This document shows positions 3,029 through 22,805 of a DNA stretch of 64,000 nt, one piece after another (the stretch's first letter is position 1; each line of letters opens with the position of its first letter). The stretch spans positions 2,272,001 to 2,336,000 of the forward strand of contig OY759974.1 of NCBI GenBank assembly GCA_963662945.1. The letters are read 5' to 3'. The stretch comes from Arcobacteraceae bacterium. GTDB taxonomy: Bacteria; Campylobacterota; Campylobacteria; Campylobacterales; Arcobacteraceae. The notes beneath the pieces are model-generated. The model was not told where the DNA came from, ran no database searches, and was given only the letters and a program-made list of their open reading frames with translations. A program made the translations under genes and the position numbers.

Positions 3029-3045
3029 TGTATATTTTTTATATA
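3029..3045 (+). promoter_or_regulatory. TGTATA-N5-TATA(C/T)A box upstream of the EAL gene
   Basis: TGTATA TTTTT TATATA, 31 bp before TATAAT (3077-3082). Confidence 0.5.
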
Positions 3046-3146
3046 TAAATGCGAGTTTTTTCTTGTTATTTTTTTATATAATGGTAACTTGTTTTACAAT
3101 ATGGTTTAGTGGTAAAACAGTAATTAATGGTAAATGTGGAAAAATA

Positions 3147-4349
3147 ATGTTAGATAAATTAATAAATGAAGATAGGATAGAGATACATTTTCAACCTATT
3201 GTATCTATGAAAGAAAATAGGATATTTGCATTTGAAGCACTCACTCGTGCTTATGATGAAAATAATGATTTTATATCTCCTCTTTTTCTTTTTGAACATG
3301 CAAGGAAAGAAAATCGTTCAGTTGAATTAGATGATTATGTAAGAAAGTTAGCATTGTATAAGTTTGTAGAGTATTATAGTAAAGATAACACATTATTACT
3401 CTTTTTAAATTTTGAAGCTTCTATGATAGATGAAGATGTAGGTTCTAGTTTTTTACAAAATATAGATAACTGTAAAATACCTTATCAAAATATAATAATT
3501 GAGATAAAAGAAGATAGTGTTCGAGATAACTATTTTCTGGAAAAATTTGTTTTAAAATACAGAAAATTAGGTTTTTTGATTGGTGTAGATGACTTTGGTA
3601 CTGGATATTCAAGTTTTGATAGACTTGCTTTGATTAAGCCAGATATTGTGAAGCTTGATAGGTCTTTAATCTATAATATTCAAAACAATTATATTAATTC
3701 TGAGATTCTTACTTCAATCTCAAATATGTGTCATAAAATAGGTGCAGTAGTATTAGCAGAAGGTGTTGAACAAAATGATGAGATACTCACTTGTATGACA
3801 AAAGATATTGATATTTATCAAGGTTTTTTCTTTTCTAAAGCACAAGATATTATTGATACAAAGATTATACAATTAGTAGAAAATAAGATAAATGAGATAC
3901 AAAAAGGGTATAAATTACTTTTACAAGACTATTATGAAAAAGAAAAAAAGCTCTTAAAAAGATCAAAAAAGATTATCAAAAAAACTTTAGATATTTTAAA
4001 TAGTGATACAAAAGATTATAGAAAACAAATAACAAAAATCATTCAAAATGACAGTCATATAGAAGCGATTTATCTCCTTGATTTGGAGACAGGATTACAA
4101 ATTGGTGATACGATTATAGAAGAAATAAATCAAAGATTATTATACAGTCCTACAAATGATGGTCATGACCATAGTTTTAAAGAATATTACTTATATACAA
4201 AAGATTCTAAAAATAAAGAATATTTGACAGATAAATATATTTCTAAAGCTACAGGTAATATGTGTAATACATATTGTTTAAAAATTAAGCTGCAAGAAGT
4301 AGATTATATCTTATGTTGCGATATTGTTGATGAAAAAAATATGATGTAG
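3147..4349 (+). CDS. EAL-domain c-di-GMP phosphodiesterase with C-terminal PDC/Cache-like domain
   Basis: HFQPIV, FEALTR, DDFGTGYSS, KLDRS, AEGVE and QG motifs; no GGDEF. ATG at 3147 is more plausible than TTG at 3063. Confidence 0.85.
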   Translation: MLDKLINEDRIEIHFQPIVSMKENRIFAFEALTRAYDENNDFISPLFLFEHARKENRSVELDDYVRKLALYKFVEYYSKDNTLLLFLNFEASMIDEDVGSSFLQNIDNCKIPYQNIIIEIKEDSVRDNYFLEKFVLKYRKLGFLIGVDDFGTGYSSFDRLALIKPDIVKLDRSLIYNIQNNYINSEILTSISNMCHKIGAVVLAEGVEQNDEILTCMTKDIDIYQGFFFSKAQDIIDTKIIQLVENKINEIQKGYKLLLQDYYEKEKKLLKRSKKIIKKTLDILNSDTKDYRKQITKIIQNDSHIEAIYLLDLETGLQIGDTIIEEINQRLLYSPTNDGHDHSFKEYYLYTKDSKNKEYLTDKYISKATGNMCNTYCLKIKLQEVDYILCCDIVDEKNMM

Positions 4350-4358
4350 TTAGCTACA

Positions 4359-5933
4359 TTATAGAATCTCCTCAATTGAAAGTTGTGATAAAACTCTATT
4401 ATCAAAACTTTCAAAACTTTCAAACTCCTCTTTTTCATCTCTATATTTTATCATGAGTGTTTTTACAATATATTTTGCTTTTTCCAAAGGAACTGCTTTT
4501 GCTAATACTCTTGCTTCTTTAGCTTCAAGTGTTGCTTTTCCACCTAAAAAGATATGAACTCCATAACACGAGTTGCCATCTTCATCTTTTGCTTTACAGC
4601 CTTCAAAACCTATATCTGCAACTCCATGAATTCCACAACCTTTGACACATCCTGACCAATACATTCTTACTTTTCCATTTTTTATAGGAACTTCATGGGC
4701 TAAAAAGTTTGCCATCTCTATGGCATCTGGTTTATTTGGTATTACTGCAAATGCACAAGTTGCCGTTCCTGCACAAGCTATTTGATGGTTGAAATAGATA
4801 TTATTATACGGTTTATATTCTTTGAATAAATCACTATTTTGCACAATTTCAGTGTGATTTTTATCTGTGATAATATATAAACTTTGTTCAACAGAAAGTC
4901 TTATTTTCCCATCAACCATTGAAGATAAATGACCAATTTTTGTTAAATCAGAACCTTTAAAAATACCACTTGGAATACTGAAGTGTACTGCTTTTAAATT
5001 TTCACTTAAATTAAATATTCCACTTTCATCTAGGATATATTCCTCTTTCGCCAATATCTCACCACTATTTTGATAGTTGATATTTGTTGTTTCTTTTATA
5101 GCGTTTACAAATTCATTCATACCTACAGCTTCTAGTAAAAAGTGTAATCTATTTTTATTTCTATTGTCTCTAAATCCATATTTTTTAAATAGTTCTACTA
5201 CAGCTTTAAAGGTTGGTATAATCTCATCCTTTTTTATAAAAAGACCTGTATTTGTTGCTTGGACACCAACTTTCCCACCAAGATAAAGATTAAAACCTAT
5301 CTCTTCATCTTTTTTAGCAACGATAAAACAACAATCGTGTCCATAAATATTACAATCATTTGTATCTGTTCCCAAGATTGCTGTATTAAATTTTCGTGGC
5401 AGTGTCGCTATCCACTCCTCTTTTTTGAAAAATATTTGTTGCAGTTCATCAATGATTGGTTTACATACTATAATATTTTTATCTCCTAAACCATCAAAAC
5501 TACTAGTAACAATATTTCTAAAGTTATCAACACCAGTTTGAAAAGTAGAAATCCCCACACTATCAAGTTCTTGTAATACTGTATTTAAGTGTTTTAGTTC
5601 TAAAAATCTAAATTCAAGTTGTTGTCTAGTTGTTATATCTATATAATCTTCCCCATATTGAGTGGATATTTTACCCAGTTTTATAGCTTGCTCTGGAGTT
5701 AATTGACCTGCTGGGATACGAATACGAAGCATAAACTTTCCATCTTTTTTTAAAAACAGTCCAAAACATTTTAAGAAAAAACTACTATCTTCATCAGACA
5801 AATTTTCTAAACCATTAGCACAAATTGTATCTAGCTTTTCATAGACACTCATAGGTGTTTTTAGTTTTTTAATATCTTCTATTTTATTGATTTTTTTATT
5901 TCTAAGCGTATATGCTTCTTCTAATACTTTCAT
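4359..5933 (-). CDS. nirA: Ferredoxin-dependent nitrite reductase (siroheme/4Fe-4S)
   Basis: MLRIRIPAG, TTRQ, LPRKFN; Cys motifs CAGTATC and SGCVKGC; nitrate-assimilation context. Confidence 0.85.
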   Translation of the reverse strand: MKVLEEAYTLRNKKINKIEDIKKLKTPMSVYEKLDTICANGLENLSDEDSSFFLKCFGLFLKKDGKFMLRIRIPAGQLTPEQAIKLGKISTQYGEDYIDITTRQQLEFRFLELKHLNTVLQELDSVGISTFQTGVDNFRNIVTSSFDGLGDKNIIVCKPIIDELQQIFFKKEEWIATLPRKFNTAILGTDTNDCNIYGHDCCFIVAKKDEEIGFNLYLGGKVGVQATNTGLFIKKDEIIPTFKAVVELFKKYGFRDNRNKNRLHFLLEAVGMNEFVNAIKETTNINYQNSGEILAKEEYILDESGIFNLSENLKAVHFSIPSGIFKGSDLTKIGHLSSMVDGKIRLSVEQSLYIITDKNHTEIVQNSDLFKEYKPYNNIYFNHQIACAGTATCAFAVIPNKPDAIEMANFLAHEVPIKNGKVRMYWSGCVKGCGIHGVADIGFEGCKAKDEDGNSCYGVHIFLGGKATLEAKEARVLAKAVPLEKAKYIVKTLMIKYRDEKEEFESFESFDNRVLSQLSIEEIL

Positions 5934-7189
5934 ATTATTTCCTTATTAAAAATTGAATTAAATTTTACTACATCCCCAAAAACCAAGATAGCTGGTCTCT
6001 CCATCTCTTCTGAATCAGCTACAAGATTTTTTAAAGTTGTTGTAACTACTTTTTGATTTTGTCTACTTGCATTTGAAACAACTGCACAGAGTTTATTTTG
6101 TGAAATATCTAGTTTTAAAGACTCTTGTACTATCTCTTTTGCACGACTAAGTCCCATCAAAACTACAACAGTATGATTTTCTTTTTTGAGAAGCTCTACC
6201 CAGTCAAGATTTATACTATTTCCTTTTAGATGTGCAGAAACTACAGTAAAACCAGCTGCATATCCACGAGCTGTTATGGGAATACCTGCTGTTGAACATC
6301 CACTGATACTTGAACTAATACCAGGAATAACTTCTGTAGGTATTTGTTCATTGATTAAATCTTGTAATTCTTCAGCACCTCTACCAAATACAAAAGGATC
6401 TCCACTTTTAAGTCTTGCTACACTTAATCCCATTTTTGCATATTTGATGATGAGTGCATTTATCTCTTCTTGAGATTTACTATGAAAATCTTTTTGTTTC
6501 CCTACAGATATTTTAAGTGTGTCTTTTGGAACTATTTGCATAATTTCATCACTAATTAAATGATCATATAAAACTACATCAACAGTTTTAATGATATTGT
6601 GTGCTTTGATTGTCAAAAGTTCTACATCGCCTAAACCGCAACCTACTAAATACACTTGTGTTTTTAAAGTGTTTAGCTCTTTTTGTGTTTGTTGAACATC
6701 AATAATTCCAGCATCTCTTTGCTGTTGTTTTTTTTCTAAATAGCTTTTTATATCTTTTGGGATAAGTTTTGCACATTCATCACGAAAATATTTTGCAGCA
6801 GTTGGTGAAGCTCCATTTGATGATACAGCTATTTGTAAAGGCTTATTTGGGGTTAATGCCATAAAATAAAAGTCACAATATTCTGGTACATCCACTACAT
6901 TAAGTAAAATATTATGAGTTTTTTTATAGTTTAATAATTTGTCGGCTACTTTAGGATTGCCCGTTGCATCTATAATAATATAGAACTCTTTTATATCCTT
7001 TAATATAAACTTTTTTTTGATGATATTATTTGTAGTTTCTAAAATTTCATTTTTAAAAGTATTACTAATAATAGTAAACTCTATATCATTCTCTTTTAGT
7101 ACAGTAGCTTTTTGTAAAGCTACATTTCCTCCACCAATTAGTAAAATCTTTTGATTTTTTAAAAGTATTGGTAATGTTTTATTTTTCAC
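5930..7189 (-). CDS. cysG: Siroheme synthase (precorrin-2 dehydrogenase/ferrochelatase plus uroporphyrinogen-III methyltransferase)
   Basis: N-terminal IGGGNVA and NVVDVP; C-terminal RLKSGDPFVFGRGAEE and PGISS. Confidence 0.88.
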   Translation of the reverse strand: MKNKTLPILLKNQKILLIGGGNVALQKATVLKENDIEFTIISNTFKNEILETTNNIIKKKFILKDIKEFYIIIDATGNPKVADKLLNYKKTHNILLNVVDVPEYCDFYFMALTPNKPLQIAVSSNGASPTAAKYFRDECAKLIPKDIKSYLEKKQQQRDAGIIDVQQTQKELNTLKTQVYLVGCGLGDVELLTIKAHNIIKTVDVVLYDHLISDEIMQIVPKDTLKISVGKQKDFHSKSQEEINALIIKYAKMGLSVARLKSGDPFVFGRGAEELQDLINEQIPTEVIPGISSSISGCSTAGIPITARGYAAGFTVVSAHLKGNSINLDWVELLKKENHTVVVLMGLSRAKEIVQESLKLDISQNKLCAVVSNASRQNQKVVTTTLKNLVADSEEMERPAILVFGDVVKFNSIFNKEII

Positions 7190-7249
7190 AACTTTTCCCT
7201 TAAGTAATATTGAACTATAATAATTTAGTAAGAGTATTCTAACATTAAT

Positions 7250-7290
7250 TTAATGTAAAATTAATATTATATTGTATATTAAATATATAA
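7250..7290 (+). promoter_or_regulatory. 41-bp conserved block containing the TGTATA-N5-TATATA box (narK promoter)
   Basis: 34/41 ungapped identity by hand alignment to 12372-12412; box at 7273-7289; TGnTATACT -10 at 7321-7326. Confidence 0.7.
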
Positions 7291-7374
7291 ATTATTTGAT
7301 AATAATTTAAAAATAGCTGTTATACTTACAATATCAAATAATATTTAATGATAAATTAAGATTAGGAATGAAAA

Positions 7375-8655
7375 ATGGCAGGATTTAAAGATTTAAAAGG
7401 ACAAGGACATGCACCAACGCTGTTTATGGCTTTTTTGTATTTCGATATGAGTTTTATGGTTTGGACTATGTTAGGTCCTTTAAGTACAGAGATAACAGAA
7501 GCTTTAGCAATGGCAGGTCATCTTATGACAGCAGGAGAAAAAGCAACACTTTTATCACTTCCTATATTAGCTGGTGCAATTTTACGAATAGTGTTAGGAT
7601 TTGGTGTAGATAAGTTTGGTGCTAAAAAAACAGCACTATTATCACAAGGTATTGTAATAGCTGCTCTTTTAACAGCATATTTACAAGGAAATAGTATCAC
7701 ATACAATCAACTTCTTATAGTTGCTCTTGGACTTGGATTTGCTGGGGCTAGTTTTGCTGTTGCATTACCGCAAGCTGGACAATGGTATCCTCCAAAACTT
7801 CAAGGGGTTGTTTTAGGAATTGCAGGGGCAGGAAATATTGGAGTAGTTATTGACTTCTTGTTTGCACCAAAAATTGCAGAACTTTGGGGATGGGAGTCTG
7901 TATTTGGCGTAGGTGCTTTGATGGCTATTATTGTATTTGTAGCATATTTCTTTTTAGCACAAGATGCACCAGAATCTGTATATAAAGCAAACCCAAAAAG
8001 ATTAAAAGATTATGTTAAACTTTTAAAAGATAAAGATACTTGGTGGTTCAATTTATTCTATGCTGTAAGTTTTGGTGGATTTGTAGGGTTTGCGGGATAT
8101 ATGAAAGTATATTTGATGAATACTTATAGTGTAGATATGTCTGCATTTGGATTAGATTTTCTTGATGAAGGAAATGTAAAAGTTGTTGCTGGATATTTTG
8201 GAGCATTATGTATCTTTGCAGGAGCTGTTTTAAGACCTGTTGGTGGTGCCGTTGCTGATAAATTAGGTGGGGTAAAATCTTTATACTTTTTCTATGGAAC
8301 TGTGGCATTATTGGCTATAATTAATGCAACAATTACACTTCCTTTTGGTATAGCTATTTTTGTATTGTTTTTAATTATGGCAAATCTTGGTATGGCAAAT
8401 GGAGCAGTATTTCAACTAGTACCTCAAAGATTTGGAAAAGATATTGGAATTATGACAGGTATTGTTGGATGTGCTGGTGGTTTAGGTGGAACAGCACTTA
8501 TTAAAACTCTTGGGTGGTCAAAAGGTGCTTTTGATGGATATACAGCTGGACTTATAATATTTGCTTGTGTTGTTTTAGTTGCAATCGCAGGAATTAGTTT
8601 GGTAAAAACAAGATGGAGAACAACTTGGGGAGTATCTGCTGGAGGAAGAATATAA
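7375..8655 (+). CDS. narK: Nitrate/nitrite MFS transporter (NarK/NasA family)
   Basis: Nitrate signature GFAGASFAV..., GAGNIG, LRPVGG, GMANGAVFQLVP. Confidence 0.88.
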   Translation: MAGFKDLKGQGHAPTLFMAFLYFDMSFMVWTMLGPLSTEITEALAMAGHLMTAGEKATLLSLPILAGAILRIVLGFGVDKFGAKKTALLSQGIVIAALLTAYLQGNSITYNQLLIVALGLGFAGASFAVALPQAGQWYPPKLQGVVLGIAGAGNIGVVIDFLFAPKIAELWGWESVFGVGALMAIIVFVAYFFLAQDAPESVYKANPKRLKDYVKLLKDKDTWWFNLFYAVSFGGFVGFAGYMKVYLMNTYSVDMSAFGLDFLDEGNVKVVAGYFGALCIFAGAVLRPVGGAVADKLGGVKSLYFFYGTVALLAIINATITLPFGIAIFVLFLIMANLGMANGAVFQLVPQRFGKDIGIMTGIVGCAGGLGGTALIKTLGWSKGAFDGYTAGLIIFACVVLVAIAGISLVKTRWRTTWGVSAGGRI

Positions 8656-8674
8656 AAAATAATAGTAGGTTAAA

Positions 8675-10309
8675 ATGAAAAATACAAATATGCATATTTC
8701 TGGATTCACACTTGCTAAAGGAAAAGAACTAGTAGGGGATGATTTTTATGATGTAAAAAACATAGAAAATCTTACTATTGGAATAGTTTGTGACGGTGTT
8801 GGAAGTGCCCAAGAGGGAAGAGTTGCTGCAAAAAGAGTAGTGAATCACCTTATGACAAACTTTAAAAATAGACCACAGGCGTGGTCTATAGAAAAATCTA
8901 TTAAAAAATTTATAACTTCAATTAATGCAATTTTATATCAAGAATCTATGGTAAATTATGAAAGACCAGAACTTGTAACAACGCTTACTATTATTGTAAT
9001 AGAGGGAAATAGACTTTATGGGGCAAATGTTGGAGATAGTAGAGTATATCTTTTAAGAGAAGAAAAACTTACGCAACTTTCTCTAGATCATTCAATGGAA
9101 GAATCAGGATATGAAAATGTTCTTACCCAAGCAATAGGAATAGAAAAAGATGTAGCACCTTATTATTTTGAAAATATAATTCAAAAAGATGACAAAATTC
9201 TTCTATGTAGTGATGGTTTATATAACATTATGAGTGAAAATAGACTTGAATCTGGAATACCACTTGGAGCAAATTCACTCGTAAAAAAAGCAAGTTCTCT
9301 TATGGAAGATAATCTCCCTGATGATACAACAGCTGTTATTTTACAAGTACAAGAAGTGAGTTTACTAGAAGAATTAAAAAAACAAAAACTAGCAATACCG
9401 ACAATCCTAAAAGCTGGGGATGAAATAGATGGTTATATTTTAGAAAAATCTCTTATTCAAAATAATAGAACATGGTTATGTACTAAAAATAAAAAACAAT
9501 ATGTTTTGAAATTTGCTCCAACGGAGGCACTTGAAGATAAAGCTATCTTAGACCTTTTTGTACAAGAAGCTTGGAATGCCAAAAGATTAAAAGCTGGATT
9601 TTTTCCAAAAGCAGTTATTCCGAAAAAAAGAACATGCAGATATTATGTCATGGAAGCTCTTGATGGAGTTGATTTAAAAACATATTTGAAAAAAAGAGTT
9701 TTAAGTGTAGATGAGTCGATAAATCTCGCTAAAACACTTTTAAAAATGTCTCAATATCTTATAAAATTTGATTTAGTGCATGGGGATATAAAACCTGAAA
9801 ATATTATGATTACAAAGAGAGCTGATAAAAAATTCTTTAAAATTATAGATTTTGGAAGTATCACAGAAGTATATAGTATCAACTCAAAAGCAGGAACTCC
9901 CTCATATCTTTCTCCTCAAAGATTTCAGGGGGATGCGATAAGTGAAACAAGTGAAATTTTTTCTATAGGGGTAACTCTTTATGAATCTTTGACAAAAAAG
10001 TTTCCATACGGAGAGATAGAACCTTTTCAAAATCCTACTTTTAAACAAGCAAAATCATTAAAAGAGTTAAATAATAAAATTCCACATTGGCTAGATAGTG
10101 TGATATTACGAAGTATAGCTATAGAGGAACAAAACAGATATAAAAACTATTCAAATATGATGTATGAGTTAGAAAATACTCAAAAGGTAAAACCGTATTT
10201 TAATAAAAATGCGCCACTATTAGAAAAAAATCCACTTATGGTGTATAAAGTTGGATTTTATTTGATGTTAGTTATAAATTTTTTTATGTTTTTAATGTAT
10301 CACAAGTAG
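8675..10309 (+). CDS. Bifunctional PP2C-type phosphatase / Ser-Thr kinase with C-terminal TM
   Basis: PP2C motifs CDGVG, NVGDSR, CSDG, DDTT; kinase motifs HGDIKPEN, DFG, GTPSYLSP. Confidence 0.9.
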   Translation: MKNTNMHISGFTLAKGKELVGDDFYDVKNIENLTIGIVCDGVGSAQEGRVAAKRVVNHLMTNFKNRPQAWSIEKSIKKFITSINAILYQESMVNYERPELVTTLTIIVIEGNRLYGANVGDSRVYLLREEKLTQLSLDHSMEESGYENVLTQAIGIEKDVAPYYFENIIQKDDKILLCSDGLYNIMSENRLESGIPLGANSLVKKASSLMEDNLPDDTTAVILQVQEVSLLEELKKQKLAIPTILKAGDEIDGYILEKSLIQNNRTWLCTKNKKQYVLKFAPTEALEDKAILDLFVQEAWNAKRLKAGFFPKAVIPKKRTCRYYVMEALDGVDLKTYLKKRVLSVDESINLAKTLLKMSQYLIKFDLVHGDIKPENIMITKRADKKFFKIIDFGSITEVYSINSKAGTPSYLSPQRFQGDAISETSEIFSIGVTLYESLTKKFPYGEIEPFQNPTFKQAKSLKELNNKIPHWLDSVILRSIAIEEQNRYKNYSNMMYELENTQKVKPYFNKNAPLLEKNPLMVYKVGFYLMLVINFFMFLMYHK

Positions 10310-10324: not shown

Positions 10325-12304
10325 TTATATCTTCTCAATCTTCACAGCACTATGATTATAGTCAGGCTCTAGTGAATCTTTATCTAGTAAGTCATTTGTT
10401 AAATAGTTTACATCTCTATTACTTATGGGGATAAAAAGTGTTTTTTCTCTGATAGTATCAGTGATAAGTGCTTTTGTGAGAAGTTCTCCTCTACTTGAAA
10501 GTACTTTTATTTCATCGCCATCTTTTATATTAAGTTCTTCTGCATCATTTGGATTAATTTCACAAAAATTTAGTTCTTTAAACTTTAAAAGTGTTGTAGG
10601 AAGATTTGTTTTTGTTCCAGAGTGCCATTGGTCTCTTGTACGACCTGTTAGAAGTATAAAAGGGTATTTTAATGAGGCTTTTTCACTTAAAAGCTTATTT
10701 TCTACAAAGTGAAGATTTCCTTTTTTGTCAGGTGTTAGAAACTCCTTAATTCTTTGTCCCCAAATAAATGGCTCATTTGAGAGAGTATCATAAGAAGCTT
10801 CATGGATATTCATATATGAGTTTAGTTTTGTCATTGCTTGGAACTCTTCAAATATCTCTTTAGGACTATTGTAATTAAAATATCTTTTGAAGCCAAGTTT
10901 TTGAGCAATAAGTTGAAAAATTTCCCAATCTGGTTTACAATCTATAGATATACGGGTAAGTTTTTCTTGTTTTGTGATAGTTCTATCAAGATTTGTTTGT
11001 GTTCCCTCTTTTTCTCCCCAAGGAGCAGCTGGAAGTCTTATATGTGCATATTTTGCAGTTTCACTATTTTCATAAGCATTGATTTCTACGATAAATGGTA
11101 TTTTCTTGATAAGTTCTTCACTTCTGTTTCTATTTGGAAGATGATAAATAGGGTCTGTGTGACACACTATTAAAACATCTAAGTTGGCTTCTAGCATCTG
11201 AGTTGCTGTGAGTCCTGCTTTATTGTCAATTTTATCTGTTTGCCAAAATTCACTCACTTTTTTGATACTTTCATTATCAAACCCTAGATGAACAGCCAAC
11301 ATTGTAGATAATCCACCAACTTCTCGTCCACCCATAGCATTTGGCTGTCCAGTTAAACTTAAAGGACCATTTCCAGCTTTAAAAATTTTCCCAGTAAGAA
11401 GATGTGTATTGATAAGACTTAAGTTTTTATCTACCCCTTGACTTGATTGATTCAGTCCCATAGTCCAAGCAGTGATAATATTGGGACTATTTTTATATAG
11501 AGTCCAAAATTCTTCAAACTGTTCAGCTGATAAACCTGTTCTTTTTAACATTTTAGTTACAGGTACTCTTTTGAATTTATTTTTGAGAAGTTCAAAATTA
11601 TTAATATAATTTTCTACAAATTCTTTATCATAAAGTTCTTCATCTATCAATCTTTTACTTACAAGATTAAAAAAGTCTATATCACTTCCTACTCTTAAAG
11701 GGATATATATATCTGCAATTTTTGCAGTTTCAGTATATCTAGGGTCAATTACGACAATTTTTAAACCCTCTTTTTTTGCTTTTTTTATTTGATTGTGAAA
11801 AACTACATGAGCTTCAGCAGTATTTGCCCCTGCAAGGATAAGTAAATCACTTTTAAAAATATCATTCATTCGTACAGGTACAAAGTCTGCACCTATAGAT
11901 TTTTTATAAGCTACAACTGCAGATGCCATACAAGTTCTACTATTTGTATCTACATTATTTGTTCCTATGAAACCTTTACAAAGCTTGTTTGCTATATAGT
12001 AATCTTCTGTTAAAAGCTGTCCTGAAAGATAAAAACCTATTTTATCTTTTGGTGTAGTTTTGATTTTGTCTGCAATTATACTAATAGTATCTTCCCAAGT
12101 TGATATTTTATATTCATCGTTTATATCTTCTCTTATATGAGGTCTTAAAAGTCGTGTTGGTGTTTGGATACTTATAAGTTCAGAGATTCCTTTACTACAA
12201 AGTTTTCCTTCATTAGTTGGATAAGTGACATCTCCTAATAGTTTATGTTCATCATATTCTAACCCACAACCTACACCACAATATCCACAAACAGATTTAA
12301 TCAT
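10325..12304 (-). CDS. Assimilatory nitrate reductase, Mo-bisPGD catalytic subunit (NarB/NasA-like)
   Basis: CGYCGVGC...C 4Fe-4S motif, NSRTCMASA, GQPNAMGGRE, TGRTRDQWHSGTKT. Confidence 0.9.
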   Translation of the reverse strand: MIKSVCGYCGVGCGLEYDEHKLLGDVTYPTNEGKLCSKGISELISIQTPTRLLRPHIREDINDEYKISTWEDTISIIADKIKTTPKDKIGFYLSGQLLTEDYYIANKLCKGFIGTNNVDTNSRTCMASAVVAYKKSIGADFVPVRMNDIFKSDLLILAGANTAEAHVVFHNQIKKAKKEGLKIVVIDPRYTETAKIADIYIPLRVGSDIDFFNLVSKRLIDEELYDKEFVENYINNFELLKNKFKRVPVTKMLKRTGLSAEQFEEFWTLYKNSPNIITAWTMGLNQSSQGVDKNLSLINTHLLTGKIFKAGNGPLSLTGQPNAMGGREVGGLSTMLAVHLGFDNESIKKVSEFWQTDKIDNKAGLTATQMLEANLDVLIVCHTDPIYHLPNRNRSEELIKKIPFIVEINAYENSETAKYAHIRLPAAPWGEKEGTQTNLDRTITKQEKLTRISIDCKPDWEIFQLIAQKLGFKRYFNYNSPKEIFEEFQAMTKLNSYMNIHEASYDTLSNEPFIWGQRIKEFLTPDKKGNLHFVENKLLSEKASLKYPFILLTGRTRDQWHSGTKTNLPTTLLKFKELNFCEINPNDAEELNIKDGDEIKVLSSRGELLTKALITDTIREKTLFIPISNRDVNYLTNDLLDKDSLEPDYNHSAVKIEKI

Positions 12305-12371
12305 TTTCTTTTCCCTTTATATCTTTATTATTATATCTTTAAAAAATTATAAAATGATTATACCATACTAA

Positions 12372-12412
12372 TTAATGAAAAATTAAGAATATAATGTATA
12401 TAAATTATACAA
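12372..12412 (+). promoter_or_regulatory. 41-bp conserved block containing a perfect TGTATA-N5-TATACA box (nrtA promoter)
   Basis: Box at 12395-12411; TATACT -10 at 12444-12449; near-copy of 7250-7290. Confidence 0.7.
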
Positions 12413-12490
12413 TAAAGCTGTATATTCTTTTTTAAAATTAATGTATACTTCCCTTATTAAACATTTATAATGTAAATTTAAGGAGAAAAA

Positions 12491-13870
12491 ATGTTAAAAA
12501 CAGTTTTAAAAGTTGGTCTTGGGATTTCAGTTGTAGCTTCTACACTTTTAGCAGCACCAGAAAAAACAAAATTAAAAATAGGGTTTATTGCACTAACAGA
12601 TTGTGCACCATTGGTTATTGCAAAAGAGAAAGGTTTTTTTAAAGCAGAAGGTTTAGATGTACATGTTGCAAAAGAGGGTGGTGGATGGCCAGGTATTCAG
12701 CAAAAAGTAATAAGTGGAGAATATGATTTCTCACATGCATTAGCTGGTATGCCAATAGCTGCAACTTTAGGGATAAATGGAGATGCACATTTACAAGCAT
12801 TGTTAAGTTTAGATTTTAATGGTAATGCAATTACTTATGGTAATAATATTATTAAAGAGATGCAAAAATATGGTTTAGATAAAACATCAAGACCTGTAAG
12901 TGCAGATAGTTTAAAAAAATATATTGATGAAAAACATAAAACAGAAGGGTCAAATTATGCACCACTTGCTTTTGGTATGGTTCATCCAGTTTCAACACAT
13001 AACTATGAATTAAGATATTGGATGGCTGGGTCTGGTATAAAACCAGATGAAGATTGTACAATCAAACCATTTCCACCACCTACAATGCCACAAAATTTAA
13101 TAGCTGGTAACATTGAGGGATATTGTGTAGGGGAACCTTGGAATTCAAGAATTGTACTTAAAGGTGCAGGAAGTGCCCTAGTAACAAACTATGATATTTG
13201 GAACAATAATCCAGAAAAAGTTTTACAAGCAAGAGCAGATTTTGTAGAAAAATATCCTGAAACTACTAAAGCAGTTATGAGAGCAGTTATAAAAGCACAA
13301 ATGTGGTTGGATGAGTCTTGGGAGCATAGAGAAGAAGCGCTGAAATTTTTAGCACAAAATAACTATGTAAAAGCACCAGTTGATGTCTTGAGAAAATCTA
13401 TGTCTGGAACATTTCTGTACAATAAAGGTGTAGATTCTGAAAATCCAATGTTTAATGTATTTGCAAACTACTATGCTTCTTATCCATTTTATTCTCATGG
13501 TATGTGGTTTATTACACAAATGTACAGATGGGGACAACTTGACAAACCAGTTGATATGAAAGCAACAATTGAAAAAGTTTATAGACCAGATTTATTTGCT
13601 CAAGTTGCAAAAGAAGTAGGGTATACATTACCACCAAGTCCTTGGAAAAAAGATGGAGTTGATGAATACAATAAATTCATTGATGGAAAAGTATGGGATC
13701 CTAATAAAGCTGTTGAATATATTTATGATACATTTAGTGTAACTACACCTAAAGTATCTAAAGAAGAATTAGCAAAAGTAAACAAATGGCAAGTTGAAAC
13801 AAAACAACCAAAATATGTATGTCCTTATGGACCAGCTGGATGTGCTGATCCAAAATATGTTACGAAATAG
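12491..13870 (+). CDS. nrtA: Nitrate ABC transporter substrate-binding protein (NrtA/CmpA family)
   Basis: Signal peptide; GFIALTDCAPL, STHNYELRYW, YCVGEPWN, PEKV. Confidence 0.88.
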   Translation: MLKTVLKVGLGISVVASTLLAAPEKTKLKIGFIALTDCAPLVIAKEKGFFKAEGLDVHVAKEGGGWPGIQQKVISGEYDFSHALAGMPIAATLGINGDAHLQALLSLDFNGNAITYGNNIIKEMQKYGLDKTSRPVSADSLKKYIDEKHKTEGSNYAPLAFGMVHPVSTHNYELRYWMAGSGIKPDEDCTIKPFPPPTMPQNLIAGNIEGYCVGEPWNSRIVLKGAGSALVTNYDIWNNNPEKVLQARADFVEKYPETTKAVMRAVIKAQMWLDESWEHREEALKFLAQNNYVKAPVDVLRKSMSGTFLYNKGVDSENPMFNVFANYYASYPFYSHGMWFITQMYRWGQLDKPVDMKATIEKVYRPDLFAQVAKEVGYTLPPSPWKKDGVDEYNKFIDGKVWDPNKAVEYIYDTFSVTTPKVSKEELAKVNKWQVETKQPKYVCPYGPAGCADPKYVTK

Positions 13871-13947
13871 TCTTTTGACTATTTTGTAATCGTAAAAGGT
13901 ATATTTTAATATGTATCTAGGTTAGATGTATATTAAAGATATATCTT
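13860..13947 (+). other. Two intercistronic hairpins between nrtA and nrtB
   Basis: TTACGAAATAGTC-TTTT-GACTATTTTGTAA, then a long imperfect stem around ATGTATCTA-GGT-TAGATGTAT. Confidence 0.55.
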
Positions 13948-13975
13948 AAAATTCAAATCAAAGTAAAGGAAAAAA

Positions 13976-14791
13976 ATGAATAAAGAAATTCTAAAAAAAA
14001 TACTGTTACCACTTGTGGTATTTATAGTAATCATTCAGATTTGGTCTGGTATAGCACAAGTTGTTAATGGCTTTCCAACACCAACAAATACTTATGTTGC
14101 AGCTTTTGGTGGAGAAACAACTGATGGAGAGGTATTAAAAGGTGTTTTAGCGGATCCATTTTATATAGAAAACCAAGATGATAAAGGGATTTTTTGGCAA
14201 ATCTTAGAATCACTTAAAAGAGTATTTGGAGGTTTTGCATTAGCTATTATTGTAGGTGTTCCTGTTGGATTATTTATAGGTATGAGTAAAAGTGCTCAAT
14301 ATGCGTTTGACCCATTCATACAAATACTCAAACCAGTGTCTCCACTTGCTTGGTTGCCATTATTGTTGTTTATTTTCAAAGATATTAATTTAACAGCAAT
14401 TTCAACTATATTTATTACTTCTATTTGGCCAATTATTATTAATACAGCTTTAGGTGTACGAAGTGTCAATGAAGATTATATGAATGTTGCAAAAGTTTTA
14501 AGATTTACACCTTTAGAAAAAGTCATTCAAATAATTTTACCAGTGGCTATTCCATTTATCTTTACAGGTATGAGACTAAGTCTTGGTATTGCTTGGCTTG
14601 TTATTGTCGCTGCTGAGATGTTAACAGGTGGTATAGGTATAGGTTTTTGGATATGGGATGAGTACAATAATTTAGCCTATGCAAATATTATTATAGGGAT
14701 TATTATAGTTGGTATAGTTGGATTTATGTTGGATTTAGTTATGGGTAAAATAGCAGATTTCTTTGATTATAGAAAAAAAGGTAGAGCGTAA
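13976..14791 (+). CDS. nrtB: Nitrate ABC transporter permease
   Basis: KPVSPLAWLP, WPIIINTALGV, WLVIVAAEM. Confidence 0.9.
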   Translation: MNKEILKKILLPLVVFIVIIQIWSGIAQVVNGFPTPTNTYVAAFGGETTDGEVLKGVLADPFYIENQDDKGIFWQILESLKRVFGGFALAIIVGVPVGLFIGMSKSAQYAFDPFIQILKPVSPLAWLPLLLFIFKDINLTAISTIFITSIWPIIINTALGVRSVNEDYMNVAKVLRFTPLEKVIQIILPVAIPFIFTGMRLSLGIAWLVIVAAEMLTGGIGIGFWIWDEYNNLAYANIIIGIIIVGIVGFMLDLVMGKIADFFDYRKKGRA

Positions 14792-15585
14792 TGGAAAAAA
14801 AGTTTTTAAGTTTAGAAAATATTGAGAAAAGATTTCCAATTCCAGGAAAAGATGATTATGTGGCTGTTACAAATGTAAATTTAGAGATTAGAAAAGATGA
14901 GATTATCTCTATTATTGGACACAGTGGATGTGGAAAATCTACTTTATTAAATATGATATCAGGTCTTGATGCACAAACTGATGGTCACATCATATTAGAA
15001 AATAAAGAGGTAAAAGGACCAGGTCCAGATAGAGCAGTTGTATTTCAAAACCATTCATTACTTCCATGGTTAAGTGTATATCAAAATATTGAAATGGCTG
15101 TGAAAAAAGTGATGCCAGAACTTTCTAGTAAAGAGTTACGAGATAGGGTAGAAAAATATATTTCTATGGTCAATCTTGATCATGCAAAAGATAAAAAACC
15201 AGATGAGATAAGTGGTGGTATGAAACAAAGAGTTGGTATTGCTAGAGCATTATCAATTTCTCCAAAAGTATTACTTATGGATGAACCATTTGGTGCTTTA
15301 GATAGTTTAACAAGAGCAAATCTTCAAGAACATCTTATGAGAATACAAGAGAAAGCAAAAAATACAGTTATTATCATAACACATGATATTGATGAAGCTG
15401 TACTTTTAAGTGATAGAGTTATTATGATGACAAATGGTCCAGAAGCTACTATTGGTGAAATATTGGAAGTTAATTTAGAGAGACCAAGAGACAGAGTAGC
15501 TTTACAAACTGATCCAGAATATATTAGATGTAGAGAAGCAATCTTAAGTTTTCTTTATGAAAAATTTGCAAAAGAGGATGAGTAG
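14791..15585 (+). CDS. Nitrate ABC transporter ATP-binding protein (NrtD/NasD-like)
   Basis: Walker A GHSGCGKS, ISGGMKQR, MDEPFGALD. Confidence 0.9.
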   Translation: MEKKFLSLENIEKRFPIPGKDDYVAVTNVNLEIRKDEIISIIGHSGCGKSTLLNMISGLDAQTDGHIILENKEVKGPGPDRAVVFQNHSLLPWLSVYQNIEMAVKKVMPELSSKELRDRVEKYISMVNLDHAKDKKPDEISGGMKQRVGIARALSISPKVLLMDEPFGALDSLTRANLQEHLMRIQEKAKNTVIIITHDIDEAVLLSDRVIMMTNGPEATIGEILEVNLERPRDRVALQTDPEYIRCREAILSFLYEKFAKEDE

Positions 15586-16881: not shown

Positions 16882-17763
16882 TTAAAATTCATCTGCTTGT
16901 TTTTTTTCTAAAATTGAACTTTGGGTTATACTTTTATAAAAATATGCCAAACCTATAAACATAATCGTTGTACCAAACAATAAATAAAAAGCAGAATCCA
17001 TATTTTTATAGTCATCTAAAGTGATTTTAAAAACAACCATTAAAGTTTCAATAGATAAAGCAATAATAATTGAGATTAAAAATTTCCCCAAAACCTTATA
17101 TTGTCTATCATTTGCATGACTAAAAGAGTGAAAAATAACCTCATGTTCAAATATTTGTTTTGCCAAATCAAAAATAGCAATCCCCAATGTAACTGATATT
17201 ATAGCTTTAAAGGTTGTTTCAAAAAAGTCAAAACCTAGAGGATTTGTTGTCATTGTCATAAAAGTATATCCACCATGACCAATTAAAACAATAGAAATAA
17301 TCCCTAACATAAAAGAACCGAAAATATAAATGAGTCTTTTGAACTTGTCATAGGTACTGTTATAATCAATAAGTTTTAATTCTTCAAGTAAATGTATCAA
17401 ATTAAAATCAAAGATATAATAACTGTCATTTTGTTTTTTTACAACTGATAAACTTGCTTTTCCCGTCCTATAATGGATATATGGATTTGAGATATAAATA
17501 TTGTCTTTATTTAAATCTAATCTCATAAAATAGTGACTTTTATCACTTTCCAAATGCATCTCATCGACACTTTTTCTACAAATCACTGGGCTACTTTGTT
17601 TATAGTTTTCATCTACACTATAAAGTAATTGAATATATCTGTTATTATCTAAAATATATTTAGAGTTTTTGATATAATCATCTGGCAAAGTTTTAATAAC
17701 AATTGAAATAAAATTGTCAACATTTATCTTGTGCTTTTTGTATATGTTTATCACTTCTCTCAT
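16882..17763 (-). CDS. Membrane protein with N-terminal PDC/Cache-like domain and four C-terminal TM helices
   Basis: ISNPYIHYRTGKASLSV Cache-like motif; hydrophobic C-terminal half; AAGGAG SD. Confidence 0.7.
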   Translation of the reverse strand: MREVINIYKKHKINVDNFISIVIKTLPDDYIKNSKYILDNNRYIQLLYSVDENYKQSSPVICRKSVDEMHLESDKSHYFMRLDLNKDNIYISNPYIHYRTGKASLSVVKKQNDSYYIFDFNLIHLLEELKLIDYNSTYDKFKRLIYIFGSFMLGIISIVLIGHGGYTFMTMTTNPLGFDFFETTFKAIISVTLGIAIFDLAKQIFEHEVIFHSFSHANDRQYKVLGKFLISIIIALSIETLMVVFKITLDDYKNMDSAFYLLFGTTIMFIGLAYFYKSITQSSILEKKQADEF

Positions 17764-19697: not shown

Positions 19698-19713
19698 TGG
19701 AATAGATTTTGTA
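19698..19713 (+). promoter_or_regulatory. Candidate sigma54 promoter for the ferredoxin pair
   Basis: TGGAATAGATTTTGTA (GG-N10-GT; imperfect -12). Confidence 0.45.
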
Positions 19714-19727
19714 TATATCAAAAATGT

Positions 19728-19860: not shown

Positions 19861-19881
19861 AATCAAAAACAGGAGAAAAAT

Positions 19882-20268
19882 ATGGCAGTATTAATAACAG
19901 ATGAATGTATAAATTGTGAGGCATGTGCAGGTGAGTGTCCTGTTGCAGCAATTTTAGAAGATTCTAACGAAAAAAATCCAAGTGATGATAAATTTTATGT
20001 AAAACCTGAGTCTTGTGTTGAGTGTGTAGGTCATGCTGATGCACCAAGATGTGTTGAAGCCTGTCCAACAGAAGGTGCAATCGTATGGGATATGCCATAT
20101 ACAGCAGAGTTTAACGAATACTTCAAAGAGAGAAATGAAGCTGGTATTTACAATATTAGAGAACACAAGAAAAAAGGTCTTATGCTTCCAGAAGTAAAAG
20201 CGCAACCATATATGGAAGAGATTTCAATGAGTGATAGAGAATCTCATGCAAATATAGGAGAATGGTAA
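19882..20268 (+). CDS. 2[4Fe-4S] ferredoxin with C-terminal extension, copy 1
   Basis: CxxCxxCxxxCP and CxxCx8CxxxCP motifs. Confidence 0.88.
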   Translation: MAVLITDECINCEACAGECPVAAILEDSNEKNPSDDKFYVKPESCVECVGHADAPRCVEACPTEGAIVWDMPYTAEFNEYFKERNEAGIYNIREHKKKGLMLPEVKAQPYMEEISMSDRESHANIGEW

Positions 20269-20269
20269 G

Positions 20270-20650
20270 ATGTCAGTATATATTACAGACAGTTGTATAA
20301 ACTGTGATGCATGTATAGAAGAGTGTCCAGCAACTGCGATCGTAAGTGCGGATGAATCACCATTAGCAGATGCTGAATTTACTTATGTAAAACCTGAAAA
20401 ATGTATTGAATGTGTAGATACAACAATACCAAAATGTGCTGAAGTATGTCCTACAGAAGGGTGTATTGTATGGGATATGCCTTATACTGAAGAATATGAC
20501 TCATACTATTTAGATGGACAAGAAAATGGAATCTATAGTATTAGAGTTCATAAGAAAAATGGGATTTTAAGCCCAGCAAATCAACCTCGACCTTTTAGAG
20601 AGTCTATCTCTATAGAAGACAGAGAAGCTAAAATGGCTGTAGAGGTTTAA
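20270..20650 (+). CDS. 2[4Fe-4S] ferredoxin with C-terminal extension, copy 2
   Basis: Same Cys spacing; shares YVKPE, CPTEG, VWDMPYT and GIYxIR with copy 1. Confidence 0.88.
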   Translation: MSVYITDSCINCDACIEECPATAIVSADESPLADAEFTYVKPEKCIECVDTTIPKCAEVCPTEGCIVWDMPYTEEYDSYYLDGQENGIYSIRVHKKNGILSPANQPRPFRESISIEDREAKMAVEV

Positions 20651-20662
20651 TTATAAACTTCA

Positions 20663-20688
20663 ACTAGATAGTTTTCAAACTATCTAGT
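20663..20688 (+). terminator. Hairpin after the ferredoxin pair
   Basis: ACTAGATAGTTT-TC-AAACTATCTAGT; weak U-tract. Confidence 0.6.
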
Positions 20689-20712
20689 ATAAATTCTTCC
20701 CATTATTTTTAT

Positions 20713-20729
20713 TGTATAAAATTTATTCA
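20713..20729 (+). promoter_or_regulatory. TGTATA-N5-TATTCA box upstream of the GPG phosphatase gene
   Basis: 31 bp before TGnTACACT (-10 at 20761-20766). Confidence 0.55.
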
Positions 20730-20772
20730 TGATTCTCTTGGATATGTAACTCTATTATGTTACACTTTTATC

Positions 20773-21567
20773 ATGAAAAATATAATATTTACAGATCTAG
20801 ACGGAACATTTTTAAATCATCATAACTATTCTTTTGAAGAAGCACAAGAAGCACTTGCTATTATAAAGAAAAAAAAGATACCACTTGTTTTTACTACAAG
20901 TAAAACAAAAATTGAGGTAGAACAGTTACAAAAAAAAGTTGGTATAGTTGAACCTTTTATTGTAGAAAATGGTGCAGCACTTTTTATACCTAAAAACTAT
21001 CAAAACTTAGAGTTGGACTTTTTGAAAGACTTTGAAGAGTATAAAGTTTTAATATTTGGAAAGACTTATGAACAAATTTTGAACTTTTACAATCAATACA
21101 AAGATGAGTTTGGTATGCTTGGTTTTAGTGATATGGATGAAGATGAGATTGCTAAAGTTACTGGGCTTGAAATTCAAAATGCCAAATTTGCAAAACAAAG
21201 AGAATTTACAGAACCTTTTATTTTAAAAGATATTACAAAACTAGAAAAACTCAAAAATCTAGCTTCAACTTATAAAATTAAAATCACTCAAGGTGGTAGA
21301 TTTTTTCATCTTATTGGAGAAAAACAAGATAAAGGAATAGCAGTCAAAAAAACTATAGAACTTTTTGAAAAACTTTATGATGAAAAGATACACTCTCTTG
21401 CTCTAGGTGATGGAGAAAATGATATTAAGATGTTAGAAGTTGTAGATACCCCTATAGTAATCAAAGATTATAAAAATGAATATCTTAATATAAATTTACC
21501 CAATATGCAACAATCTACTTATCAAAGTAGTCAGGGATTTAATGAGATGATTTTAAAAAATGTGTAG
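20773..21567 (+). CDS. Glucosyl/mannosyl-3-phosphoglycerate phosphatase (HAD-IIB, MpgP/GpgP family)
   Basis: FTDLDGT, TSKT, IVENGA, REFTEPF, QGGRFFH, LGDGEND. Confidence 0.88.
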   Translation: MKNIIFTDLDGTFLNHHNYSFEEAQEALAIIKKKKIPLVFTTSKTKIEVEQLQKKVGIVEPFIVENGAALFIPKNYQNLELDFLKDFEEYKVLIFGKTYEQILNFYNQYKDEFGMLGFSDMDEDEIAKVTGLEIQNAKFAKQREFTEPFILKDITKLEKLKNLASTYKIKITQGGRFFHLIGEKQDKGIAVKKTIELFEKLYDEKIHSLALGDGENDIKMLEVVDTPIVIKDYKNEYLNINLPNMQQSTYQSSQGFNEMILKNV

Positions 21568-22681
21568 AAAAGAAGAGCTAGAAAAAATCTATTTTCAAGC
21601 TGTAAAAGCAGTATTACCAAAAACGATTGTAAAAGAAAATCTACTTAAATATAAAGATAAAAAAGTCTATGTTTTTTCAATAGGAAAAGCTGGATTTGAT
21701 ATGGCAAAAGAGGCTGAGAAAGTATTGAAAAACAATATTTTAGGTGGTGTTGCTATCTCTAATAAAGAAGGTAAGTTAAAAAAGATAAAACATTTTACTT
21801 CTACACATCCACTTGTTTCTCAAAAAAGTGTTAAATCAGCTAAATTACTGCTTCAAGAGATTAAAAAACTCAAAAATACTGATAGTTTTATTTTCTTTCT
21901 AAGTGGTGGTGCTTCTGCTATGGTTGAGCTACCCAAAGATGGTATGAGTTTAAATGAATTTAAAAAAATATCTTCCAAACTTTTAACTTCTGGTATTGAT
22001 ATAAAAGAGTTAAATAAAGAGAGAAAAAAACTCTCACAAATAAAAGGTGGAAAGTTAGCAGATAAATTTAAAACCAAAAAAGGTGTTGTATTTGTTTTAA
22101 GTGATGTAATAGGGGATGATATGAACACTATAGGTTCTGCTCCTATGAATAATGGAAAGTTTACACATACACTTATAGGAAACAATACAAAAGCACTTCA
22201 AGAAGCTAAAAAATATATTTCATCTAAAGTAGAACATACAAAAATCATAACAACAACTTTGGATATGAATACTTCAGATGCTTCAAAATTTATTGAAAAA
22301 TGTATCAACAAATATGATAAACGATATAAAAGTTTTTCTTTACTTTTTGGTGGCGAAACAACTACAAAAGTAAAAGGAACTGGTAAAGGTGGAAGAAATC
22401 AAGAGTTAGCTTTAAAGCTACTAGTACAAAAAAGTATTACGAAAGATATCTCACTTTTATGTGCTGGAAGTGATGGTGGAGATGGAAACTCTGATGCTAC
22501 GGGTGCATTTGTTGATTTTGATATTTATAAAAAAATTGAACAAGAGAAGTTAAATCCAAAAGATTATTTAAAAAATAGTGATAGTAATACATTTTTTCAT
22601 AAATTAGGGTACGATTTTGTAACAGGAAAAACTGGTACAAATGTAATGGATTTTATAATAGTATTAAAAAAGCCTAATTAG
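21560..22681 (+). CDS. Glycerate kinase, class II (MOFRL/TtuD family)
   Basis: IGKAG, LSGGASA, LSDVIGD, GGETT, GGRNQE, TGTNVMD. Confidence 0.9.
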   Translation: MCRKEELEKIYFQAVKAVLPKTIVKENLLKYKDKKVYVFSIGKAGFDMAKEAEKVLKNNILGGVAISNKEGKLKKIKHFTSTHPLVSQKSVKSAKLLLQEIKKLKNTDSFIFFLSGGASAMVELPKDGMSLNEFKKISSKLLTSGIDIKELNKERKKLSQIKGGKLADKFKTKKGVVFVLSDVIGDDMNTIGSAPMNNGKFTHTLIGNNTKALQEAKKYISSKVEHTKIITTTLDMNTSDASKFIEKCINKYDKRYKSFSLLFGGETTTKVKGTGKGGRNQELALKLLVQKSITKDISLLCAGSDGGDGNSDATGAFVDFDIYKKIEQEKLNPKDYLKNSDSNTFFHKLGYDFVTGKTGTNVMDFIIVLKKPN

Positions 22682-22718
22682 TTTTTCTTGCATAATTATT
22701 ACAAGTTGATTACTGAAA

Positions 22719-22735
22719 TGTGTAGATTTTATACA
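22719..22735 (+). promoter_or_regulatory. TGTGTA-N5-TATACA box upstream of the GPG synthase gene
   Basis: 32 bp before TGnTATAAT (-10 at 22768-22773). Confidence 0.55.
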
Positions 22736-22805
22736 TCTCTTCTATTTTCTATAGAGGTTAATGTTGTTATAATCTATACATAAAAAAATGTAAGGTGAAT
22801 ATATT

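Follow-up and report, generated by a model that had tools for sequence, protein, structure and literature searches.

This analysis concerns a 17-bp inverted repeat, TGTATA-N5-TATACA (the box), that recurs upstream of nitrogen-assimilation genes in a 64,000-nucleotide stretch of the genome of an Arcobacteraceae bacterium (contig OY759974.1, positions 2,272,001 to 2,336,000; the whole stretch is referred to here as the window). On the evidence of its sequence, the box is a real and deeply conserved operator with a fixed promoter geometry, and it marks a nitrogen-assimilation regulon in environmental Campylobacterota. We consider it likely to be the operator of a dimeric activator that responds to nitrogen limitation in free-living members of this phylum.

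A first-pass annotation of the window had described five boxes, each 31 or 32 bp upstream of a σ70-type -10 hexamer, and every one of them was found where it had been placed and at that distance. The scores below come from a weight matrix trained on nrtA sites of related genomes, which were chosen by half-site likeness, and the gap is the number of bp between box and hexamer. The boxes and their putative -10 elements are as follows.

3029..3045, box 1, TGTATATTTTTTATATA (TGTATA-N5-TATATA), matrix score 13.9; gap 31
3077-3082 (+), -10 hexamer TATAAT, for the EAL gene
7273..7289, box 2, TGTATATTAAATATATA, matrix score 14.9; common to cysG-nirA and narK
7318-7326 (+), extended -10 element TGT-TATACT, narK; gap 31 from box 2
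7236..7244 (-), extended -10 element TGT-TAGAAT, cysG-nirA; gap 31 from box 2
12395..12411, box 3, TGTATATAAATTATACA, a perfect palindrome, matrix score 23.3; common to nasA and nrtA
12444-12449 (+), -10 hexamer TATACT, nrtA; gap 32 from box 3
12357..12365 (-), extended -10 element TGG-TATAAT, nasA; gap 32 from box 3
20713..20729, box 4, TGTATAAAATTTATTCA (TGTATA-N5-TATTCA), matrix score 17.6
20758-20766 (+), extended -10 element TGT-TACACT, gpgP promoter; gap 31 from box 4
22719..22735, box 5, TGTGTAGATTTTATACA (TGTGTA-N5-TATACA), matrix score 7.1, the weakest of the five
22765-22773 (+), extended -10 element TGT-TATAAT; gap 32 from box 5

The genes and operons at these boxes are listed below, with open reading frame abbreviated to ORF.

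3147..4349 (+), gene for a YkuI-like protein with EAL and PAS-like parts; the listed ORF starts at 3063
4359..7189 (-), operon of cysG (siroheme synthase) and nirA (ferredoxin-nitrite reductase), divergent from narK
7375..10309 (+), narK (nitrate/nitrite MFS transporter) and a PP2C phosphatase-Ser/Thr kinase fusion
10325..12304 (-), assimilatory nitrate reductase (nasA/nasC-like), divergent from nrtA
12491..15585 (+), nrtA-nrtB-nrtC, nitrate ABC transporter
20773..22681 (+), gpgP (glucosyl/mannosyl-3-phosphoglycerate phosphatase) and glycerate kinase, as overlapping ORFs
22806..27897 (+), gpgS, a sucrose-phosphorylase-like GH13 enzyme, galU and pgi

A TGn extension is present on three of the five -10 hexamers described originally. 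Boxes 2 and 3 were found to lie in divergent intergenic regions with a -10 element at an equal gap on both sides (31/31 and 32/32, respectively), an arrangement that the first-pass annotation had not mentioned.

The frequency of the box was compared with that in dinucleotide-shuffled DNA. Allowing at most one mismatch to the strict pattern TGTATA-N5-TATACA, the window holds six matches against 0.74 expected, and none of 100 shuffles reached six. Relaxing the limit to two mismatches removes the excess: 14 matches were counted where 10.9 were expected, and 22 of 100 shuffles yielded at least as many. When the search was confined to AT-rich intergenic DNA (3637 bp by crude gene calls, 21.6% GC), four sites scored at least 13.8 where 0.023 were expected (0 of 300 shuffles), and five boxes scoring at least 7 were paired with a -10-like hexamer at a gap of 31 or 32 where 0.052 were expected (0 of 500 shuffles). 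Thus, against shuffled intergenic DNA, the combination of box and spacing, which the first-pass annotation had said would lose its meaning at background frequency, lies far above chance. Lowering the score of this composite to at least 3 and extending it to the whole window returned the same five sites and one weak match inside an ORF (54101). Two further pattern matches were rejected as sites: the sixth one-mismatch match, at 60632, lies inside a SprT-like ORF and has a matrix score of -3.8, and a two-mismatch match at 13927 scores -1.4.

Conservation was assessed in relatives collected by a scan of species-representative genomes with NrtA, which gave 416 relatives. The best 80 loci were kept, with at most 10 kb on each side, and all counts for related loci refer to them (individual loci carry L-numbers); the sample, collected around nrtA, is biased to nitrate genes. 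The window NrtA itself shares 90% identity with its counterpart in Arcobacter nitrofigilis DSM 7299, which marks the organism as Arcobacter-like within the family. In the 300 nt preceding nrtA, the strict pattern with at most one mismatch was present in 38 of the 79 loci examined, and in most of the remaining loci TGTATA is replaced by TGATTA, or TATACA by TAATCA. With the derived matrix, a box was detected before nrtA in 66 of the 74 loci that could be tested; in the other six loci the upstream sequence was too short. The 66 comprise 23 of 24 loci from Arcobacteraceae, 14 of 14 from Sulfurovum, 15 of 19 from Sulfurimonadaceae, the single Sulfurospirillum locus and 13 of 15 from unclassified bins; an uncultured Helicobacteraceae bin was the one group without it (0 of 1). 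Phylogenetic footprinting in Arcobacteraceae and Sulfurimonas had been proposed as a check in the first-pass annotation, and these counts support the box. Across the 80 loci and the window, 142 of 149 matrix matches (score of at least 11) are intergenic, and three of the other seven fall in two short ORF calls that overlap spacers.

The 49 box-aligned nrtA sites define the consensus T-G-(T/A)-(A/T)-T-A-N5-T-A-(T/A)-(A/T)-C-A, in which T1, G2, T5, A6, T12, A13, C16 and A17 vary little or not at all, A and T replace one another at positions 3, 4, 14 and 15, and the five central positions are A or T. The half-site thus alternates between TGTATA and TGATTA, a variation absent from the first-pass annotation. 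The constant positions are mirror images of one another, and the box is therefore a true palindrome; a direct-repeat reading was rejected, G2 and C16 being mirror images and out of register. Two features of individual spacers were also recorded. A third half-site, TG(T/A)(A/T)TA, occurs 7-8 bp downstream of the box in the nrtA promoters of the loci (12419-12424 in the window), and at L043:9106-9919 an IS200/IS605 transposase gene separates narK from nrtA, and a perfect box stands on either side of that spacer (scores of 22.2 and 24.5).

The distance between box and hexamer is likewise conserved. Among box-gene pairs other than those of nrtA (N = 116, score of at least 13), 58 have a -10-like hexamer at gap 31 and 10 have one at gap 32, and most other gaps between 10 and 54 were represented by no more than 10 pairs each. 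The conserved TACATT inside a second element, E, described below, gives rise to minor peaks at gaps 14-15 and 19-20. The nrtA pairs (N = 64) are divided between gap 31 (27 pairs) and gap 32 (21 pairs). Counted by site, a -10-like hexamer at gap 31 or 32 accompanies 33 of the 45 boxes that lie elsewhere than upstream of nrtA, and five of these boxes have one on both sides. When the hexamer is taken as -12 to -7, the box would cover about -60 to -44, with a computed centre at -52/-53 relative to the putative starts.

Apart from nrtA, and from the EAL genes treated further below, the genes that follow the box in these loci are given here.

nasA: 43 box matches in 40 loci
narK: 35 box matches in 19 loci
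DmsB/DmsC-like Fe-S protein beside nitrate reductase: eight box matches in seven loci
nirA: seven box matches
456-amino acid protein, possibly a porin: six box matches
Ammonium transporter (amt) genes: box at six of six testable genes in three loci, each then followed by PII
nirB: box at four of six full genes and two of two fragments
FNT nitrite/formate transporter: box at two of three; cyanase is the next gene in both of those loci
Histidine kinase-response regulator operon: box at two of two
cysG: two box matches

The amtB and cyanate genes that the first-pass annotation expected in such a regulon are represented here by amt-glnK and by the FNT transporter-cyanase pair. Both amt/PII genes and genes for alternative nitrogen sources, the two classes by which a global nitrogen-control regulon is recognized, are accordingly present. 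Given that amt-glnK and cyanase genes are among the box genes, the signal is taken to be nitrogen limitation, and the regulon content points to a general nitrogen-limitation regulon rather than to a response to nitrate itself.

Several of these loci have additional features. In L004, L032 and L041, amt-PII-amt-PII tandem pairs lie downstream of nrtABC, and every amt gene is preceded by a box of its own, 60-67 nt before the called start. The 456-amino acid protein (L047:3290-4660 and 14 other loci) adjoins nrtABC in Sulfurimonadaceae and has a box upstream in six loci; no family scored above the cut-off, a weak Alginate_exp match being the sole hit, and the protein is perhaps an outer-membrane channel. 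A histidine kinase and response regulator adjoin nasA at L009:5618-7698 and L018:401-2642. The L009 box has a -10 element at gap 31 and the L018 box lies 25 nt upstream of the called start; the regulator is OmpR-type in L018, and the L009 ORF call spans the receiver domain only. A nitrate-sensing role for the kinase in these two loci was rejected, as its sensor domain is Tll0287-like and not nitrate-sensing. The PP2C phosphatase-Ser/Thr kinase fusion gene (window 8675-10309) is kept directly after narK and has 27 members in the loci, which hints at phospho-control of nitrate transport.

A second conserved element, element E, was absent from the first-pass annotation. Its sequence is CTTAAwwTTTACATTAA, readable as TTAAT-N5-ATTAA, and it starts 7 bp after the box in the promoters of nasA, nirA, cysG and the Fe-S gene, where it covers the -35/spacer region. 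It recurs in the narK leader and in that of nrtA, where it overlies the Shine-Dalgarno sequence and stops 8-9 nt short of the ATG. Matches to an E matrix were intergenic in 130 of 140 cases and lay nearly all at those nitrate and nitrite genes, at the same positions in most of L002-L080; none of the 140 precedes an amt gene. In the window, E was found only in the narK and nrtA regions, and not before the EAL or gpg genes. Its four window copies are as follows.

7249..7265 (-), upstream copy (ATTAATTTTACATTAAA on the minus strand), 7 bp from box 2; -35/spacer of the cysG promoter
7344..7360 (-), second copy, in the narK 5' leader, 95 bp from the first
12371..12387 (-), upstream copy, 7 bp from box 3, in the nasA promoter core
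12466..12482 (-), copy in the nrtA leader, ending 8 nt before the ATG and overlapping the Shine-Dalgarno sequence

In each of the two regions, 95 bp separate the copies (7249/7344 and 12371/12466). We infer that E may be the site of a second, pathway-specific factor. In letters and position it resembles the Helicobacter pylori HsrA consensus TTTAAG-5bp-CTTAAA, as given in the available part of PMC8345958.

The first-pass annotation had also joined three functions through the box, namely nitrate uptake, a cyclic di-GMP (c-di-GMP) phosphodiesterase and glucosylglycerate synthesis. The nitrate-uptake part of this link is strongly supported by the data above. The phosphodiesterase part is supported too, by boxes or half-boxes conserved at homologues of the EAL gene in other genomes. 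The start of the window gene is probably the ATG at 3147, as judged by alignment with 11 homologues. Its product retains the EAL catalytic residues, and the structural model (predicted local distance difference test score 83) matched Bacillus subtilis YkuI (2w27/2bas) over its full length, with template modelling scores of 0.76-0.80 over about 406 columns. A homologous protein of 395-419 amino acids is encoded directly after nrtC in eight loci and beside nasA or nrtA in four more. In L077 and L079 the EAL gene shares the nrtA box divergently; in L010, L017, L020 and L062 it is preceded by a half-box, TGTATA-N5-TTTGCA, 31 bp before TATAAT; and in L007 and L011 the right half-site TATACA stands 31 bp before TATACT or TATAAT. 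The EAL protein was rejected as a candidate binder of the box, its C-terminal part being predicted from the model to have the PAS-like fold of YkuI and no DNA-binding fold.

The glucosylglycerate part of the link is plausible, and it is drawn from the two sites of this window (scores of 17.6 and 7.1). The gpgP -10 hexamer lies only 6 nt before the ATG at 20773, and the gpgP mRNA is therefore probably leaderless. The half-sites by which boxes 4 and 5 depart from the palindrome occur elsewhere: TATTCA (gpgP) is also found before three nirB genes, and TGTGTA (gpgS) before an amt gene in L004. The GH13 gene directly after gpgS (24029-25798) may encode a glucosylglycerate phosphorylase; if so, genes for synthesis and breakdown would be joined in one operon. 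Upstream of box 4, an inverted repeat at about 20662-20690 follows tandem ferredoxin genes and looks like their terminator.

From the observed sites, spacing, conservation and gene content, we infer the following mode of action, signal and nature of the protein. The box would be the operator of a two-fold symmetric (dimeric) transcription factor governing nitrogen assimilation in free-living Campylobacterota. Bound at about -52/-53, this factor would most likely activate RNA polymerase by direct contact, and at two places in the window a single site would activate in both directions. The signal would be nitrogen limitation, and the controlled functions would include nitrate, nitrite, cyanate and ammonium transport, nitrate and nitrite reductases, siroheme synthesis and PII. 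In this organism the YkuI-like EAL/PAS protein and, from the window only, the two glucosylglycerate operons would be extra members, and element E would probably add pathway-specific control at nitrate and nitrite promoters. The available part of one study describes the σ70 promoters of Campylobacter jejuni and H. pylori as having a gnTAnaAT element 4-8 nt from the start and no -35 element, and reports that leaderless mRNAs occur (PMC3847290); promoters of this kind, so described, fit dependence on an upstream activator. The first-pass annotation had proposed a nitrogen-limitation activator centred near -52 and a σ70 regulon, and the conserved box and spacing at nitrogen genes argue for both, with activation and signal as the conditional part. 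It had further set this regulon apart from the σ54 nif promoters. Consistent with this, no σ54-like matches precede the box genes, and -24/-12-like matches were seen just upstream of nifB and nifV, at 27949-27964 (TGGAAC-N5-TTGAA) and 32838-32853 (TGGAAT-N5-TTGCA).

The box was compared with the operators of known regulators. TnrA and GlnR of Bacillus are MerR-type nitrogen regulators with the consensus TGTNA-N7-TNACA, whose activating sites lie about 50 bp upstream of σA promoters. The box shares with them a 17-bp inverted repeat with outer TGT...ACA and an association with nitrate, nitrite and ammonium uptake genes. Unlike their sites, it has T5 and A13 in all 49 aligned nrtA sites where A5 and T13 are required, position 3 is A in about one-fifth of the aligned sites, the TGATTA variant breaks TGT, and the phylum is another; no MerR-type protein was found among the ORFs of the 64-kb window or the locus gene families. 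The length match noted in the first-pass annotation thus stands, and the match to the consensus is contradicted by T5 and A13. NtcA of cyanobacteria, a CRP-family protein, binds GTA-N8-TAC centred at -41.5, where it replaces the -35 element. Like the proposed factor, it is a global nitrogen activator of σ70-type promoters with a -10 but no -35 element, its regulon includes nirA, nrtABCD and amt, and a second, nitrite-specific factor (NtcB) acts with it at nitrate promoters, as E may do here. By contrast, GTA (positions 2-4) and TAC (positions 14-16) of the box form GTA-N9-TAC, one base longer, and its centre near -52 lies about 11 bp further upstream. The exclusion of NtcA made earlier, like that of NifA, holds from the sequence itself.

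The NtrC enhancer, TGCACC-N5-GGTGCA, acts at a distance on σ54 -24/-12 promoters. The box resembles it in its 6-N5-6 layout of 17 bp, in sharing TG.A...T.CA (six of 12 half-site positions) and in belonging to a nitrogen regulon, and differs in that its partner is a σ70-type (TGn)TAnAAT at a fixed 31-32 bp. LysR-type regulators recognize a T-N11-A core in a dyad at about -65, with an activation site at about -35 and a divergent LysR gene. The T-N11-A remarked on in the first-pass annotation is indeed present (T3, A15) and is a low-information feature that any such palindrome has; the recognition and activation positions do not agree, the box centre being near -52, and no LysR gene was found in the 64-kb window or among the gene families that recur in the 80 loci. 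Actinobacterial GlnR is an orphan OmpR-type global regulator of nitrogen limitation with direct-repeat sites; it is like the proposed factor in that role, and unlike it in phylum and with no likeness of sequence. Within the phylum, HP1043/HsrA of H. pylori is described, in the available part of the source, as a symmetric head-to-head OmpR-type dimer that binds TTTAAG-5bp-CTTAAA and activates transcription (PMC8345958). On that description, HsrA sites and the box have in common two hexamers 5 bp apart with centres one helical turn apart, and they differ in that the hexamers TGTATA/TGATTA are unrelated and the box lies upstream of -44, whereas HsrA sites overlap -35. Judged from these sequence comparisons, the box appears to work like the operators of global nitrogen activators and is a member of none of the families tested.

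A search for the regulator among 87 recurrent gene families and several singletons of the 80 loci yielded only sporadic candidates, namely two OmpR-type response regulator families (four and three loci), Crp (two loci) and Fur (two loci). A 293-amino acid protein (window 16882-17763, minus strand), present in 11 loci and encoded directly after nrtC in Sulfurovum and Sulfurimonas, matched no family above the cut-off. A fuller picture, tentative and less likely than not, is that of a global nitrogen regulator particular to Campylobacterota and from a family new to nitrogen control, an HsrA-like, phosphorylation-independent OmpR-type dimer with head-to-head binding being one example, which would activate σ70 promoters in both directions at about -52 and wire nitrogen limitation to c-di-GMP turnover and to synthesis of the nitrogen-free solute glucosylglycerate.

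Other explanations of the box have to be weighed against an activator of this kind. That the sites are chance palindromes of an AT-rich genome, without function, would agree with a two-mismatch count no higher than in shuffles; the shuffle controls, the conservation across families and the spacing refute it, and its probability is negligible. A repressor that binds the box under nitrogen excess, shutting promoters that otherwise run on a strong extended -10 element, would account for the several near-consensus extended -10 elements (TGTTATAAT, TGGTATAAT), which could work without an activator, as could promoters of this phylum if they need no -35 element, as the available part of PMC3847290 has it. 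Such a repressor is nevertheless improbable: the whole box (about -60 to -44) stands upstream of the core promoter, where a site at -52 does not occlude polymerase, and phasing to one bp would be needless for repression. The spacing constant to one bp, the position upstream of the core promoter and the symmetric service of two divergent promoters are therefore taken to indicate a dimeric activator and not a repressor.

A pathway-specific regulator that answers nitrate or nitrite, and not general nitrogen status, would fit the preponderance of sites before nitrate and nitrite genes, a preponderance found in a sample biased by its collection around nrtA. We consider it quite unlikely, as the box stands before every testable amt gene and before the FNT transporter and cyanase in two loci, and is shared by the glucosylglycerate and EAL promoters of the window; moreover, element E, which occurs at nitrate and nitrite genes alone, makes a stronger candidate for such control. 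It could also be that the nitrate and EAL sites are real and the two glucosylglycerate sites chance look-alikes, with no link to compatible solutes. The low score of the gpgS box, which has G at two positions where the matrix training set has none, and the lack of gpg families in all 80 related loci speak for this. Set against them are the gpgP site, which scores 17.6 and has an extended -10 element at gap 31, the 0.052 sites of box (score of at least 7) plus spacing expected in all intergenic DNA of the window, and the occurrence of both variant half-sites in bona fide amt and nirB sites. In addition, glucosylglycerate accumulates under nitrogen deprivation in bacteria of other phyla, as documented in the available part of PMC5381378. 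On balance the look-alike explanation is rather unlikely, and the glucosylglycerate link remains plausible on the strength of this window.

The preferred interpretation of the box as the operator of a dimeric nitrogen-limitation activator has points against it. The centre at -52 falls between the classical class I and class II positions of CRP-type activators, and contact geometry with polymerase would not be fixed by that centre. Twelve of the 45 sites outside nrtA regions are without a -10-like hexamer at gap 31 or 32, eight of the 74 testable nrtA loci fall below threshold, and the constancy in the 49 aligned sites and the count of 66 of 74 are partly by construction, the sites having been picked by half-site likeness. 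No regulator gene is consistently linked to the loci. Several EAL homologues have a half-box only, with matrix scores of 0.7-7.3, the gpgS site is weak, and membership of gpgP and gpgS is without comparative support, their families occurring in 0 of 80 related loci.

The first-pass annotation knew of no described regulator for the box, and no publication on it was found in a search that had subscription journals and curated regulon databases outside its scope. As far as searched, the operator is undescribed, and it belongs to a known kind of system. The literature search on nitrogen regulation in Arcobacter, Sulfurimonas, Sulfurovum and Campylobacterota returned nothing on such a regulator, or on how these bacteria perceive and answer their nitrogen supply, although an earlier description is possible; it found no transcriptome of nitrogen starvation in these genera, and nothing relevant on glucosylglycerate in these taxa among the top matches. 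In the available part of a 2019 review of regulation in the phylum, neither "nitrate assimilation" nor "NtrC" occurs, and the functions of most Arcobacter regulators are given as unreported (PMC6682613).

The operator and its geometry are sharply defined, and they could be used to predict which genes form the nitrogen regulon in any genome or metagenome bin from these groups. Arcobacteraceae, Sulfurovum and Sulfurimonas are major cyclers of nitrogen and sulfur at vents, seeps and redoxclines, and the operator could serve as bait for its regulator and the box genes as marker transcripts for nitrogen limitation in the field. Finally, the conserved tie to the EAL gene and the possible one to glucosylglycerate suggest an input of nitrogen status into second-messenger signalling and osmolyte choice in these bacteria.

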